DNA of 47,611 nt from Escherichia phage vB_EcoS_swi2. This document shows positions 4,735 through 16,899 of this stretch, piece after piece (the stretch's first letter is position 1; each line of letters starts with the position of its first letter). Position numbers and translations under genes: made by a program. The DNA lies in sequence record NC_054649.1. One strand, written 5' to 3'. Below the pieces are notes generated by a model. The model was not told the origin of the DNA and did no database searches. It saw nothing but the letters and a program-made list of their open reading frames with translations.

Positions 4735-6189
<1,455 letters not shown>

Positions 6190-6277
6190 TCATAAGTGCA
6201 GCTAGTCCGGCCAGATGAAAAGCGATTGGTTATCGCCTGCTGCATCACTTCAAACCACCTTTAACCGAGGATTCAAT

Positions 6278-7156
6278 ATGAGTAAGTCAACCGCTGAAGA
6301 ATTTATTATAAAAGCCAGAGGTATTCATGGTGATAAATATCTTTATGATGCTGTTTCTTATATAAAAAGTTCGATAAAGGTAAAGATAACATGCCGTAAG
6401 CATGGGCTATTTGAGCAGACTCCAAACTCTCATTTGAATGGAGCTGGATGCCCTTCTTGCTCTGGAAATAAGAAGAAAACAACGCGTGAATTTGTGGCTG
6501 ATGCGATTGCAAAGCATGGTGACTCTTATGATTATTCTAAAGTTGAATACAGAGGCGGTCACAAGAAAGTAAAAATAATATGCAAAGTACATAATTTTGA
6601 GTTTTCTCAGGAGGCCAACAGCCACCTTAATGGGTGTGGTTGCCCTGTTTGCGCAAGGGAGAAAATTACAGCATCTGTAACTAAGGGGTTCAATAAGTTC
6701 AAGAAAGATGCCATTATAATTCATGGGAATAAGTACCATTATGATTGCTTGTCATACATTAATGTGACAACAAAAATGAGAATAAAATGCCCAGAGCATG
6801 GGTGGTTTACAAAGACGCCAGATAAGCATCTCCAAGGGCAAGGTTGCCCTCATTGCTCCAAGGGAGGTTTCAAGCTGAAAGAAAAGGCCTTTGTTTACTT
6901 CTTGTTCTCAGGAAACGAAATTAAAGTTGGGATCACTAACAATCTTAGGCGTAGAGTTTGTCAGTTAAAGAAAAACACACCATTTGATTTTCACGTCATA
7001 TCAAAAATAAAGACAATAGGTAGTGATGCCCTTGCTATTGAAAAGTACTATCATAAGAAATACGAAAGTGCAGGACTGACAGGGTTTGATGGCGCAACGG
7101 AGTGGCTTAAATATTCACCTGAATTAATGGATGAGATAATGAACAAAGCCCCGTAA
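6278..7156 (+). CDS. T5orf172 / GIY-YIG-like domain protein with three tandem Cys/His zinc-finger repeats (putative homing endonuclease)
   Basis: Three about 45 aa repeats each with C-x-x-HG ... HL-x-G-x-GCP-x-C; C-terminal VYFLFSGNEIKVGITNNLRRR motif typical of T5orf172; GAGGA RBS before ATG 6278; AT-rich; opposite strand to flanking tail genes. Confidence 0.6.
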   Translation: MSKSTAEEFIIKARGIHGDKYLYDAVSYIKSSIKVKITCRKHGLFEQTPNSHLNGAGCPSCSGNKKKTTREFVADAIAKHGDSYDYSKVEYRGGHKKVKIICKVHNFEFSQEANSHLNGCGCPVCAREKITASVTKGFNKFKKDAIIIHGNKYHYDCLSYINVTTKMRIKCPEHGWFTKTPDKHLQGQGCPHCSKGGFKLKEKAFVYFLFSGNEIKVGITNNLRRRVCQLKKNTPFDFHVISKIKTIGSDALAIEKYYHKKYESAGLTGFDGATEWLKYSPELMDEIMNKAP

Positions 7157-7170
7157 GGGGCTTATTTTTC
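7146..7170. terminator. Bidirectional terminator hairpin between convergent genes
   Basis: agcccc gtaa ggggct hairpin followed by T-run; overlaps stop codon of the plus-strand gene. Confidence 0.6.
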
Positions 7171-9547
7171 ACTCTGTTGCTCTCCTGTTGGTATTAAAGT
7201 TTCTTGAGATAGATTGGCTCATCGGTCCGCCTTCATTCATATCGGATATAAATGTCTCAATAGTTATCGAGCCATCACCGTTATCAGTGGCTCTGCTTGT
7301 TGCGCTAGCATTGCTTGAATTATTGTAAACATTATTATAGACCACAACTCCGCCACCTCCACCGGAAATATCCTTATTGCTGATAACCTTTCCTGAGTTG
7401 CCAGGTATCATGTATTGCCTGCCTGTACTCGCCTGGAATATTTCTGGTGCATTTCCCTCGCCCACTTCGTACATACTTCCTGCACTAACAGGGCCACCAT
7501 TTTTTCGCTTGCCAGCAATTCCCATCGCCAGCGCCCCGAGAACAGCACCTACCCCAATTGCAGCCGCTCCACCGAAAGAACCGATTGATGCGACGATTGC
7601 CGCAGGAGTCCATGCTGCCGTTGTGGTGGCTGCCGCTGCAGTTGATGCTGCTGTTGTGGTTGCCAGTCCTGCCGTTTGCGCCGCTGTGGTGGTAGCTGTT
7701 GCCGCAACCTGCGCAGTCTGCCCCATAACGGCGGATTTAACCCACTGAACGCCCATTTCAACAAAGCTGTTTACCAGAGAATTCAGCACCGTAGAGCCGA
7801 GGCTGCGCATTGCATCCTGAACGCTCATTGTGCCTGTGAGCAATCCAGTGATGCTGTTTGATGCTGCACTCATCGCTGAATCAAGCGCCGTGCCGAACAA
7901 TTGCGCCCCGAGGCTTTGCTGCTGCCATTCAGCCCACATCGCATCCATTCTCTGCTGGCGATACTGCGCTTCAATTGCTGCGCGAGCCTGCTCAATCTCC
8001 GTGATTTTCTGCGGATATGCTGCGGCGTAGGCGTCAAGGTCAGCCATGCGTTGCTGGTATTCGCTATCAATGCCAGCCGTTGGCGACGCAATGGCGCGTA
8101 ATCCCTGATATGATTGTTCTACTCGCTGTCTTTCCTTCTCAGCTGCTGCCTGCTCCTTCAGTGCATTCTTCTGGTCCCAAATCTTGGCAGCGTACTCGCC
8201 AGCCAGTTTTATCTGCTCCTGAGTTGCCGACTTGCCAAGCGATTGCTGCGCGTTGAGGATGGCTTGCTCGCGGGATAGTTCGCTGGTAGATGTGGCATTG
8301 AGCATGGTTTGCTGGCGTAATTTCTCCAGCTTTTCAGCCACTGACTCAGCTTGCCGTTCTTCTGCACTTTTTCCTGTTGCTTTTTTCTTTTTCTCTTTCT
8401 CTGCTGCTTTTGGCACTGTCAAGTGCGCCTGCGCCTTTGCCGCTTCCCCTGTCGATTTGGTGACAGCATCCATATCCGCGACCAATGTGGCCGCCTGATT
8501 TGCTACCGCCGCTATGGCTTGATTCTGCGCAGCCCAACCATCAATTCCAATCCATGACCATGTTCTTGCTCTACGACTGAACATTTCTGCTGTTGATGTC
8601 AAATCAGAAATAACCTCTGCCGCACCTATGGTCTGACCAGTTAGTCTGTTGATTGCTGAGGTAATAGAGTCAATAACTGAAACAAAGGTAGAACTGGCTC
8701 CGGTTGCTTCGTTTATGCTTGCTATCATTTTTGCAAATGATGTTTCAAGACTGCCAGTCGCCTGAGATATAGAGCGCGGTAGCTTTGCGAACTCAGCATT
8801 GACGACACTCGTCCTGTCCTGAATGGCATTCAGTGCATCTTCTGCTGTCAGTTTGCCATCGAGCATTCTTGCGCGAAGTTCACCCATTGAAATGCCAAGA
8901 CCCGCCGCAATCTGGCGAGCAAGCTCAGGCATCTGTTCAAGGATGGAGTTAAATTCTTCGGCGCGGATTGTGCCAGATGCGATTGACTGACCGAACTGAC
9001 GTAATGCATTCGCCATTTCTTCAGTTGATGACCCACCTATTCGACCTATTTTTTGCAGGGTATCTGTAAGGTTCAGAACCTGCGCATTTGTCGCTCCAGC
9101 CTCTTTCAGTGATGACGTCAATGTTTCCCACAACTTCGTAGTGTCACTGAGGCTTGCGCCAGTGGTCGAGGCGATATTTGCCAGTGTGCTGAATGTTTCG
9201 TTCGCGGTTTTCGCATCAGTTGACAGGCGAGCAATCCTTGCCTGAAGCTGAGTCATGTTATCGGCAACCTCAAGGAATCGCTTTCCCCATTCGATAATCA
9301 GTGACACGGATATTGCGCCAGCCAGCATCGACATGCTGGTTTTAAGCCCTGAAGCTGCGCCGCCAGCATTCTTCATTCCGCTGCCAGCATTGCGCGCGCC
9401 TTTATCCAGCTTGTTGAACTCTCCTGTAGTCTTGTTTAGTGATGATTCAAGGTCATCTAAAGTCTTATTGGCTGTTGTCGCGCCAGCTTTCAGGCCTTTA
9501 ACATCCATCCCGACTTCATAGACAATTCCGCCGACTTCTTCAGCCAT
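7169..9547 (-). CDS. Tail tape measure protein
   Basis: 792 aa, Ala/Gln-rich predicted coiled-coil over most of length, Ala/Thr/Gly-rich hydrophobic segment near C-terminus, position between chaperone and minor tail genes. Confidence 0.8.
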   Translation of the reverse strand: MAEEVGGIVYEVGMDVKGLKAGATTANKTLDDLESSLNKTTGEFNKLDKGARNAGSGMKNAGGAASGLKTSMSMLAGAISVSLIIEWGKRFLEVADNMTQLQARIARLSTDAKTANETFSTLANIASTTGASLSDTTKLWETLTSSLKEAGATNAQVLNLTDTLQKIGRIGGSSTEEMANALRQFGQSIASGTIRAEEFNSILEQMPELARQIAAGLGISMGELRARMLDGKLTAEDALNAIQDRTSVVNAEFAKLPRSISQATGSLETSFAKMIASINEATGASSTFVSVIDSITSAINRLTGQTIGAAEVISDLTSTAEMFSRRARTWSWIGIDGWAAQNQAIAAVANQAATLVADMDAVTKSTGEAAKAQAHLTVPKAAEKEKKKKATGKSAEERQAESVAEKLEKLRQQTMLNATSTSELSREQAILNAQQSLGKSATQEQIKLAGEYAAKIWDQKNALKEQAAAEKERQRVEQSYQGLRAIASPTAGIDSEYQQRMADLDAYAAAYPQKITEIEQARAAIEAQYRQQRMDAMWAEWQQQSLGAQLFGTALDSAMSAASNSITGLLTGTMSVQDAMRSLGSTVLNSLVNSFVEMGVQWVKSAVMGQTAQVAATATTTAAQTAGLATTTAASTAAAATTTAAWTPAAIVASIGSFGGAAAIGVGAVLGALAMGIAGKRKNGGPVSAGSMYEVGEGNAPEIFQASTGRQYMIPGNSGKVISNKDISGGGGGVVVYNNVYNNSSNASATSRATDNGDGSITIETFISDMNEGGPMSQSISRNFNTNRRATE

Positions 9548-10397: not shown

Positions 10398-10712
10398 ATG
10401 ATTAATAAGAAAATTATTATTTGTGGTTTGTCAGCGGTATTTCTGATTGGCGCAATGCAGGTAGCTGTCATGCTTGGGTTTATGAAGCCTCTATTCATGT
10501 TCAGTTATAGCGGAGCAATACAGAGCGTATCACTGTTATTTGTTATTGGTTTAGTTATTTTTGTGTACCTTTTGCCTGCATTTGTGGCGCTACAACGCAA
10601 GCATGTAAACACAACAGCAATTTGCGTGCTGAATATTTTTGCTGGCTGGTGTTTCTTTGGTTGGGTGGCTGCACTGGTTTGGGCTTTGGTTAAAAGTGGC
10701 GACAAGAAATGA
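10398..10712 (+). CDS. Small integral membrane protein (accessory gene; candidate superinfection-exclusion type protein)
   Basis: 104 aa with several long hydrophobic segments; own promoter; plus strand inside minus-strand tail cluster. Confidence 0.5.
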   Translation: MINKKIIICGLSAVFLIGAMQVAVMLGFMKPLFMFSYSGAIQSVSLLFVIGLVIFVYLLPAFVALQRKHVNTTAICVLNIFAGWCFFGWVAALVWALVKSGDKK

Positions 10713-11876: not shown

Positions 11877-12344
11877 GTATTTCAGATAGTTTTCGTGAGC
11901 GACTTTGCGGACTTTTTAGAAACTGATCACAAAGATAAATGCAAACGAAGAAATGTATCTGGCCGTAGCTTAACAGCTAAACACAAGTGAGGTATTCCAG
12001 TTCCTCATCAACGAATCTTGCGCACTGGCCCGGTGTGATTAATAATGGGCACACAACGGAAAGAGCATTACTGGTGACGGAGACTAGCGATTAGCTATAT
12101 GCGAAAGTTCTAGAAGCCAAGGCGGTTCGACTCCGCAAGTGCTCTTTCCGGTGTGGTGAATGCGCAGGCTGATGCGCGCAGGAGAGCTTCGGAAGAACAA
12201 GGTGCCTGTATACAAGCCGGAGATCAGCACCGGCCACCACAATACTTAACATCCAGCATTATCGCAATCATATGTAGGGGTATGTATGGGTTACGGGGCT
12301 GGATGTTAAGAAAGCACGCTGGCAATGCTTAAACCAGCACTTAT

Positions 12345-12421
12345 GGACGCGTAGCTTAATTGGTTAAAGCAACCGACTCATAATCGGCTGATTGAAGGTT
12401 CAAATCCGTCCGTGTCCACCA
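12345..12421 (+). tRNA. tRNA-Met (anticodon CAT; could alternatively be Ile2-type)
   Basis: Acceptor GGACGCG pairs with CGTGTCC, D-stem GCTT/AAGC, anticodon loop CTCATAA, T-loop TTCAAAT, 3-prime CCA encoded; terminator follows. Confidence 0.75.
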
Positions 12422-12994: not shown

Positions 12995-13486
12995 ATGATT
13001 TCAGAGCGGGATTACATAGCAATCGCGTCAAGGGTTAAATACGACCCGATTACCGGATTGTTCACCTGGGCTGTAAGTTGCGGGAAAATATCAAAAGGTG
13101 ATATTGCAAATTATCACAACGACGCAGGATACATAACACTTGGGAAGAAAAGATTAAGGGCGCACCGAGTGGCTTGGTTTATCCATTATGGATATGTCCC
13201 TGAGCATGAAATTGATCACATAAACAATATTCGTGATGACAATAGAATTTCAAACCTGAGGGAGGCCAGTGACTGCGAGAACGCAAGGAACACAAAGATA
13301 TCTAAATCAAACACGTCTGGATATAAAGGAGTTCATTTTTGCAAGTACACGGGAAAATGGAGAGCCACGGTAAAGATGCATGGGAAAAGCTATCATCTTG
13401 GTAGGTTTTCAGACAAAGAAGCCGCCCATAAAGCCTATTGCAAAAAAGTAGATGAACTGTTTTTGGAGTTCGCAAACCACGGCTAA
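12995..13486 (+). CDS. HNH homing endonuclease with C-terminal AP2 DNA-binding domain
   Basis: HNH_3-type motif AHRVAW...EIDHINNIRDDNRISNLR followed by AP2-like SGYKGVHF...GKWRATV...GKSYHLGRF; opposite strand to flanking structural genes; AT-rich. Confidence 0.8.
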   Translation: MISERDYIAIASRVKYDPITGLFTWAVSCGKISKGDIANYHNDAGYITLGKKRLRAHRVAWFIHYGYVPEHEIDHINNIRDDNRISNLREASDCENARNTKISKSNTSGYKGVHFCKYTGKWRATVKMHGKSYHLGRFSDKEAAHKAYCKKVDELFLEFANHG

Positions 13487-15784: not shown

Positions 15785-16093
15785 ATGAAAGATGAATTTA
15801 AAGGCACAAAAGGTCAGTGGACCAATCATTCTTTATTTACTGGTGAAGCGCGTACATCAATTTGGTCTGGTGATATTTATGTAGCAGAAGTAATGAGTGT
15901 TAGGGAGTCAGAATCGGTGAAGAAGGCTAACTCAAATATTATCGCTGCAGCGCCAGAATTACTCGAAGCACTTCGCCAGCTTCGCGATTATGTTGAGGAT
16001 GTTTGCGCAGTATCGTCTGATGATTGCCATGAGGAACACCCATTAAATCTGGCAAACAAAGCAATCAAGAAAGCATTAGGAAAGAAGCAATGA
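15785..16093 (+). CDS. Hypothetical protein, paralog of 28232..28525
   Basis: Shares EFKGT-G-W N-terminus and IAA-P-LL-AL-QL central motif with 28232..28525; GAGGTGA RBS. Confidence 0.5.
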   Translation: MKDEFKGTKGQWTNHSLFTGEARTSIWSGDIYVAEVMSVRESESVKKANSNIIAAAPELLEALRQLRDYVEDVCAVSSDDCHEEHPLNLANKAIKKALGKKQ

Positions 16094-16899
16094 AAACACT
16101 AAGCAAAATCTATTCAGACAAAGAAACGCGCAACGGTATCGCAGTCAACAAAACCTACCTCGTGCCAGTGGAGCAAATCTATCTGGAGCCGGGATACAAC
16201 ATCCGTGAAGCAGATGAGCAGCACGTTGAATATTTCGCACAGTGCTGGGAATCAGGTCAGCCACTGCCAGCATTAACAGTTATTCCTGACGAGAAGGGGA
16301 TACGCATTCTTGATGGTCAGCATCGCTATCTCGGCGCATTGCGTGCCATTGAGCGTGGCGCACCAATCGCTCGTATTGAGTGCAAGGATTTCACTGGCGA
16401 TGAGGCGGACAAAATTGCCTTCATGGTGTCATCCAGTCAGGGTAAGCAGCTTGACCCGTTTGAACGCGCAAAGGCTTACACACGACTGAAAGGCTTTGGC
16501 TGGACTAACGAGGAAATCGCCAAGAAGGTAGGTCGCTCAGTATCTGACGTGCAAATGCACCTGTCGCTGGGTGATGTTCCGGCCGAAGTAAAAGCACGCA
16601 TCAGTGCAGGACAAATCAGCTATGCAAACGCCGTAGCGGTAACGCGTGAGCATGGCGACGATGCGGTTAAAGTCATCGACGAGGCAGTAGAAGAAGCCAA
16701 AGCACAAGGTAAGGACAAGGTCACAGCGAAGGTGCTGAAGTCGAAAAAGATTAAGCCAGTAGACCGCCTGATTGAGCTGTTGAAGCAAGCAGATCACGTG
16801 ATTCTCCCTGCTGGTCATTTTGTGGCAGAGGATGAGGAATTTATCCAGATTCCTGTTGCTGATATTCACGAGGTCATGGCAATTCTGGAGAAGATGTGA
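16090..16899 (+). CDS. ParB-like N-terminal domain protein with HTH
   Basis: ILDGQHRYLGA motif (ParB/sulfiredoxin-type) and HTH-like WTNEEIAKKVGRSVSDV; ATGA overlap with upstream gene. Confidence 0.65.
   Translation: MKTLSKIYSDKETRNGIAVNKTYLVPVEQIYLEPGYNIREADEQHVEYFAQCWESGQPLPALTVIPDEKGIRILDGQHRYLGALRAIERGAPIARIECKDFTGDEADKIAFMVSSSQGKQLDPFERAKAYTRLKGFGWTNEEIAKKVGRSVSDVQMHLSLGDVPAEVKARISAGQISYANAVAVTREHGDDAVKVIDEAVEEAKAQGKDKVTAKVLKSKKIKPVDRLIELLKQADHVILPAGHFVAEDEEFIQIPVADIHEVMAILEKM

Follow-up and report, generated by a model that had tools for sequence, protein, structure and literature searches.

T5orf172 homing endonuclease genes (HEGs) with repeated and shuffled CapR, DUF723 and DUF4379 zinc fingers have been reported in ICP1, T5-like, Plateaulake and VpaJT-like phages (Barth et al. 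2023, PMC10448857). These genes adjoin essential genes, including the tape measure gene, and occupy recombination boundaries, and their homing is stated to lack experimental verification (Barth et al. 2023, PMC10448857). The T5orf172 domain of Odn (ICP1 Gp88) cleaves DNA in vitro, an activity abolished by E180A, and Odn targets the satellite replication origin via its RepA_N domain (PMC8263062). The 45–48 kb siphoviruses (Skatevirus, Saltrevirus, Caminolopintovirus and similar) are not mentioned by Barth et al. 2023, and a leader RNA is absent from their description. In papers on related phages, we found no account of the junction of the tape measure and minor tail genes, and homing endonucleases are mentioned generically only.

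We analysed a stretch of 47,611 nucleotides from Escherichia phage vB_EcoS_swi2 (NC_054649.1), referred to as the window. The phage belongs with the 45–48 kb siphoviruses of Salmonella, Escherichia and Klebsiella, and the top match over positions 4800–9000 is Escherichia phage ECO111 5-P (92% identity, 80% of the query). Judging from sequence comparison, the window probably carries a free-standing homing endonuclease cassette, composed of zinc fingers and a T5orf172 domain (GIY-YIG superfamily) and inserted exactly between the tape measure gene and the first minor tail gene. The locus comprises the following features:

5668–6141, − strand: minor tail gene (157 aa), the downstream neighbour, with further tail genes after it
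about 6145–7171, + strand: inserted cassette of ~1.03 kb, extra DNA in the alignment to empty-site relatives
6267–6271, + strand: Shine-Dalgarno sequence GAGGA of the nuclease gene, 6 nt spacing to the ATG
6278–7156, + strand: nuclease ORF of 292 aa (ORF list, Pfam, PHROGs and homolog alignment)
6290–6862, + strand: three DUF4379/DUF723 treble-clef zinc-finger repeats (residues ~5–63, 68–127 and 137–195)
6884–7147, + strand: T5orf172/MUG113 domain with a predicted GIY-YIG fold (residues ~203–290)
7146–7163, both strands: GC-rich, terminator-like hairpin between the tape measure stop codon and the remaining tail operon
7169–9547, − strand: tape measure gene (792 aa), the upstream neighbour in the tail operon

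Like the HEGs of Barth et al. 2023, the window gene is free-standing, with an N-terminal treble-clef zinc-finger array and a C-terminal T5orf172 domain; it likewise adjoins essential structural genes at a boundary of genetic exchange, with non-homologous alleles at cognate sites. Unlike those HEGs, it runs antisense to its operon and lies exactly at a stop/start overlap. As the architecture has already been described (Barth et al. 2023), the gene is a further member of a described family, and it is best filed with the T5orf172 HEGs of that study.

The nuclease ORF extends from ATG 6278 to the TAA stop codon at 7154–7156. The mechanical ORF list places the start further upstream, at ATG 6215; a Shine-Dalgarno sequence was found only for ATG 6278, with no counterpart at ATG 6215. 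The preliminary description had pictured an AT-rich gene antisense to the tail genes, equipped with its own ribosome-binding site and terminator, and all of these features were recovered. The GC content is 35–42% over 6150–7200 versus 44–58% in the flanking DNA, the ORF lies on the + strand with the tape measure and minor tail genes on the − strand, GAGGA precedes the start codon, and the terminator-like hairpin (7 bp, 5 of them GC) is followed by ATTTTT on the + strand. The loop of this hairpin contains the stop codon of the nuclease ORF. A tblastn search of the window revealed no paralog of the nuclease gene elsewhere in it.

Profile searches with Pfam matched the protein to DUF4379 "probable treble clef zinc finger" in three stretches (41.2 bits, cut-off 24.5), and residues 206–290 to MUG113 (PF13455; 38.6 bits, cut-off 22.3) and T5orf172 (PF10544; 31.0 bits, cut-off 20). 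The search for a T5orf172/GIY-YIG profile, proposed in the preliminary description, was thus positive for T5orf172 and negative for canonical GIY-YIG (PF01541), which gave no significant match (E 0.36, 11.6 bits versus a cut-off of 22.6). The Pfam CapR model matched weakly (E 0.0016, 19.0 bits, under the 24.2 cut-off), and DUF723 is also assigned in the precomputed Pfam annotation of near-identical proteins. The NCBIfam profile search returned nothing meaningful, and the profile search of PDB sequences gave no match under E 0.6. Relatives of the nuclease number 4,524 at E ≤ 1e-10 in a large protein database, and tblastn matched the gene in 1,190 phage records.

In an alignment of 21 full-length homologs with T5orf172 (32–72% identity), all 12 zinc ligands are invariant (C39/H42/C58/C61, C102/H105/C122/C125 and C171/H174/C190/C193), so that each repeat combines a profile match with a full Cys/His ligand set. 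The three tandem Cys/His units noted earlier therefore stand, while the period of ~45 aa assigned to them does not, the spacing being ~64–69 aa (C39 to C102 to C171). These internal repeats were missed by BLASTP self-comparison and are revealed by the profile and the alignment alone. The number of zinc fingers among the relatives ranges from three to six, and the three fingers of the window protein are presumed to form its DNA-recognition array. In the C-terminal domain, Y207, K216, G218, R226, E255, H259 and T274-E275-W276 are invariant in the 21 homologs. The T5orf172-type motif previously placed after the repeats was found there as VYFLFSGNEIKVGITNNLRRR (residues 206–226), in a domain above the Pfam T5orf172 gathering score. 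The core residues of T5orf172/MUG113 domains are present, namely the Tyr of strand 1, K-x-G, the Arg of helix 1 and the Glu of T-E-W, and the predicted structure has the beta-beta-alpha-beta-alpha core of the GIY-YIG fold. The second motif of the nuclease reads K-V-G, not Y-I-G. The catalytic domain of I-TevI is N-terminal. Compared with I-TevI and the T4 Seg proteins, the domain order of the window protein is reversed, with the nuclease domain at the C terminus; the DNA-binding modules also differ, and KVG replaces YIG.

Comparison with insertion-free relatives, by which the preliminary description had expected to define the homing site, located the insertion precisely. In the empty sites of ZCEC08 and STGO-35-1, the tape measure stop codon and the minor tail start codon overlap as TAATG, with zero intergenic DNA. 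In the window, ~1.03 kb of extra DNA sits exactly between these two codons, containing a promoter-like site, a leader RNA, the Shine-Dalgarno sequence, the nuclease ORF and the terminator. The left end of the cassette brings a new Shine-Dalgarno sequence for the minor tail gene (GGAG, 6148–6151, − strand, 6 nt before the ATG). A same-family gene occupies the same place in the same antisense orientation in ECO111 5-P, Bas80, 64795_sal3 and K1M. Of 202 related phage records, 155 have an uninterrupted junction, judged by unbroken coverage of at least 80% of a 304-bp probe; the figures count records, many of them near-duplicate genomes. Among close relatives the gene thus shows presence/absence polymorphism at one precise site, as a homing gene does. 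The preliminary description had named two observations that would speak against its reading, namely the lack of any nuclease-family profile match and conservation of the gene at this position in all relatives. Neither was made, given that PHROGs family 681 "endonuclease" matches the nuclease at 1.4e-70 and that empty sites are found in those 155 records.

The DNA flanking the cassette differs from that of empty-site genomes in two tracts:

5995–6144, − strand: left HEG-linked tract over the beginning (5' end) of the minor tail gene, 57–70% identical to empty-site genomes
7203–7472, − strand: right HEG-linked tract over the final ~100 codons (3' end) of the tape measure gene, read from identity bins

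Beyond these tracts, identity to empty-site genomes is ~90% along the tail genes; in 5995–6144 and 7203–7442 it drops to 47–70%. The left tract is 100% identical to that of the HEG-bearing ECO111 5-P; the right tract is 90–100% identical to those of the HEG-bearing ECO111 5-P and 64795_sal3, versus 47–80% to empty-site ZCEC08. The nuclease-linked haplotype takes in ~150 bp of left and ~270 bp of right flanking DNA, and its tracts encode changed yet homologous ends of both tail proteins.

A nuclease 99% identical to that of the window lies at the same junction in the metagenomic Logan contig SRR11835836_16491, whose tail proteins include a 1,097-aa tape measure and a 440-aa product of the downstream gene. 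The DNA of this contig is 98–100% identical to the window over 6100–7240, compared with 87–93% in the backbone and 55–75% in patches; the near-identical cassette on a second backbone indicates very recent spread. Comparison of ECO111 5-P with the window revealed flanks of 95–100% identity and 93% identity over the first ~160 nt of the cassette, and a nuclease just 33–48% identical in every domain. The nuclease of 64795_sal3 has four fingers, and the last 180 nt of its gene are common with the window. Alleles are thus swapped inside a constant frame.

A near-identical element in diverged backgrounds with co-converted flanks is the mark of horizontal spread looked for in homing genes, and the pattern of flanks and cassette is that expected of a homing endonuclease with co-conversion of flanking markers. 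Linked flanks and mosaicism could also arise by ordinary homologous recombination of co-infecting phages without a nuclease. Sequence, predicted fold and population genetics all agree with a homing endonuclease, and the canonical GIY-YIG sequence profile is the sole exception. The homing reading put forward at the outset is supported by the empty sites and by the 98–100% identical cassette on a distinct backbone.

Among the other explanations, the nuclease might cut DNA in the selected role of destroying co-infecting phages or satellites, as ICP1 Odn does, which we regard as unlikely. Odn, the sole biochemically characterised T5orf172 nuclease, is an anti-satellite weapon and carries the same type of nuclease domain, with its essential E180 in the motif that reads T274-E275-W276 here; moreover, HEG-related genes have repeatedly been co-opted, and exclusion would also result from cutting HEG-less relatives at the tail-gene junction. 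The specificity of Odn, however, comes from the RepA_N domain and not from zinc fingers, of which the window protein has three, together with the population signature of a homing element. Polymorphism at one site, cassette transfer between backbones and linked flanks are predictions of homing, and the two roles are not mutually exclusive.

The cassette could instead be a moron-like passenger or a decaying element, spread by general recombination only and with a nuclease that is inactive or irrelevant. Phages of this group are highly mosaic, unrelated alleles at the site have the same leader and terminator, which could act as homology arms, and the decay of HEGs after fixation is known. Against this stand the intact ORF with all conserved catalytic-type and zinc-ligand residues kept, the very recent spread to a second backbone, and breakpoints that match the cassette-linked tracts, and we consider this explanation quite improbable. 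It is very improbable that the protein is a CapR-like DNA-binding regulator of the tail operon and not a nuclease: the gene lies within that operon, antisense to it, and the PLE satellite repressor CapR binds DNA through the same type of zinc finger, but CapR, a transcriptional repressor, has no T5orf172 domain or other nuclease domain, whereas this domain is complete and conserved here, and most relatives lack the gene, which is therefore not needed for tail expression.

The cassette opens with a conserved segment upstream of the nuclease ORF, in which two features were recognised together with related leaders elsewhere:

6182–6190, + strand: promoter-like element TGGTACAAT of the extended −10 type, its end 5 nt upstream of the leader's outer stem
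6195–6260, + strand: 5' leader RNA with a three-way junction, a divergent member of int-alpA, RF02996 (Rfam and covariation)
L003 1896–1961, L004 2807–2870, L005 1893–1958, L007 1215–1279 and L008 1215–1278: leaders of the same type

The first ~160–200 nt of the cassette are 84–94% conserved among otherwise diverged alleles, and the 74-nt stretch 6181–6254 recurs at another locus in related phages, directly before an HNH endonuclease gene. The int-alpA motif was reportedly described by Weinberg et al. in 2017; in the literature we found it mentioned in unrelated work only. Region 6195–6260 matches RF02996 over its complete length. At 26.6 bits the match stays under the gathering score of 35.8 bits, with E values of 9e-4 for a 231-nt query and 0.18 for the window as a whole; five further leaders of the same type score 28–33.1 bits. 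The outer stem is formed by 6196–6202 and 6239–6245, hairpin 2 lies at 6222–6236, and the distance to the Shine-Dalgarno sequence is 17 nt. The leader shares with int-alpA the three-way junction and the junction nucleotides, CUAG / GAAAAGC / CCUG, which match the consensus exactly. In contrast to the Rfam family, which is typed as an sRNA gene, it would here form the 5' part of an mRNA.

Scanning viral contigs with an exact pattern yielded 37 loci of the window's leader type. RNAalifold recovered the three-way junction from 19 distinct leader sequences, with 95.5% of alignment cells paired versus 82.3% in shuffles and a covariation of 0.399 versus 0.129 in shuffles (reached by 0 of 500; slid controls ≤0.086). 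Two pairs of hairpin 2 and the innermost five of the outer stem had been preset by the search pattern and are uninformative. Folding of the single leader sequence was no better than that of shuffles (z −0.43) and gave a different inner fold, so the structure rests on covariation and not on thermodynamics. A second scan, in which the outer stem was left free, gave at least 120 loci, with 136 matches across those listed. Among the matches listed, at least six of the eight outer-stem pairs are formed in 103 of 136; these 103 comprise 61 distinct outer stems, and all 18 of their loci that were tested exceed the RF02996 gathering score (40–67 bits). Since these relatives pass the gathering score, the window leader, which has the junction and the covariation and a score below the threshold, belongs to an established RNA family as a divergent branch.

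Upstream of the nuclease gene, the scan for sigma-70 consensus sites gave no promoter, and there is no good −35 for the TGGTACAAT element; the extended −10 of the cassette became apparent only when leaders were compared. In 44 of 82 distinct leaders a −10-like TANNNT ends 3–5 nt before the outer stem; it lies 1–8 nt before the stem in 52, 18 of these with a TGn extension. With a −10-like element just before the outer stem, the leader RNA would start at the 5' end of the transcript, and we infer that transcription starts at the leader.

Analysis of the downstream genes in the first sample showed that 29 of 34 are nuclease genes, comprising 17 NUMOD4+HNH_3, 10 zinc-finger+T5orf172, one HNH_5 and one canonical GIY-YIG; the leader precedes nuclease genes of these four families as well as other phage genes. 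A leader specific to nuclease genes was considered and rejected, the 29/34 sample being confined to one outer-stem type. In the wider sample, ~45% of the downstream genes among the matches listed are nuclease-type and the rest are diverse, the nuclease clusters being the only classes verified, through Pfam matches or through grouping with verified members. The others, as assigned by eye, include intein-containing terminases, primases, methyl- and glycosyltransferases, and small genes of the structural module. The diversity of the wider sample points to a general phage 5' leader that is often used by nuclease cassettes.

The hairpin-2 loop of the window, UGGUU(A) at 6227–6232, is complementary to AACCA (6253–6257) and to UAACC (6262–6266), the latter abutting the Shine-Dalgarno sequence GAGGA. 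Across loci (L009–L147), the loop co-varies with the region proximal to the Shine-Dalgarno sequence of its own gene. Over 44 loop types, the mean length of the longest complementary run is 5.41 with the own tail versus 4.11 with other tails (permutation p about 5e-5, in tests that handle shared ancestry only by collapsing identical loops), and duplex energies agree. In many tails the complement occurs twice, or a small hairpin displays the complement or the Shine-Dalgarno sequence in its loop, and a string search found anti-Shine-Dalgarno-like strings (CCUC, CCCU and others) in 19 of 49 hairpin-2 sequences. The leader would thereby limit translation initiation, fitting a toxic nuclease. We tentatively propose that int-alpA may be a promoter-proximal, cis-acting translational gate whose hairpin-2 loop pairs with the downstream ribosome-binding region or with the loop of a ribosome-binding-site hairpin. 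It may serve as a portable module of phage genes, above all of selfish nuclease cassettes (at least four unrelated nuclease families), with its conserved sequence doubling as a homology arm for allele replacement at a fixed site. Such a leader would give an orphan Rfam family a concrete role and suggests how toxic selfish nucleases stay lowly expressed.

Under the homing endonuclease reading, transcription of the cassette would be driven by its own extended −10 promoter, and the mRNA would begin with the int-alpA-type three-way-junction leader. Pairing of the leader loop with the ribosome-binding region, a complementarity backed by statistics, may keep nuclease synthesis low. By analogy with their families, the three zinc fingers would read a specific DNA sequence and the GIY-YIG-type domain would cut the target DNA, as the related T5orf172 protein Odn does in vitro. 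During mixed infection, a cassette-free relative would be cut close to where the tape measure and minor tail genes meet, and the genome carrying the cassette would serve as the repair template. Repair would copy the cassette along with ~150 bp on its left and ~270 bp on its right, which is the pattern seen in the population, and the diverged flanking haplotype may protect the carrier against its own enzyme.

The insertion would remove the translational coupling of the tape measure and minor tail genes, and would separate the two by a hairpin and by antisense transcription over 1 kb. Initiation of the minor tail gene is probably restored by the GGAG gained with the left end of the cassette. On the − strand, reading by eye revealed TAAAAT at about 6167–6172, with TTATGA lying 17 nt before it; this TAAAAT is arranged back-to-back with the + strand −10 (window 6160–6200) and is conserved among cassette-bearing genomes; the consensus scan did not flag this TAAAAT, which could be a promoter re-starting the downstream tail genes. 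In cassette-bearing Bas80 (L004 1385–2755) and in L148 (2484–3806), the gene after the cassette encodes 440–456 aa, not 157. The first part of this gene is homologous to the minor tail gene and its remainder has no Pfam match, so the product is an extended or fused variant of the minor tail protein.

The nuclease gene adds a well-resolved case to a described family and otherwise changes little. Matched empty, filled and allele-swapped sites with sharply bounded co-conversion tracts make a good natural experiment. A first experimental demonstration of T5orf172 homing would be straightforward here, as the search for the target can be confined to a few hundred bases at the junction. With the stop/start overlap broken and a hairpin placed in the operon, the locus is also a handy case for how phages tolerate such insertions.

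Several other genes of the window were observed alongside this locus. A second free-standing gene of homing endonuclease type lies at 12995–13486 (+ strand), likewise in opposite orientation to its neighbours; it has an HNH_3 match (57.7 bits) and an AP2 domain and lacks an int-alpA-like leader. The structural module also contains an AT-rich, opposite-strand gene for a superinfection immunity protein (10398–10712, + strand; Pfam Imm_superinfect, 57.3 bits), which resembles a moron. A tRNA-Met (CAT) gene is located at 12345–12421 (+ strand; Rfam 63.4 bits, and ARAGORN); the ARAGORN "tmRNA" at 12047–12421 is probably spurious, because the Rfam tmRNA model scores just 13 bits nearby. The gene at 16090–16899 (+ strand) encodes a ParB/KorB-type HTH protein (Pfam HTH_ParB, 44.1 bits).
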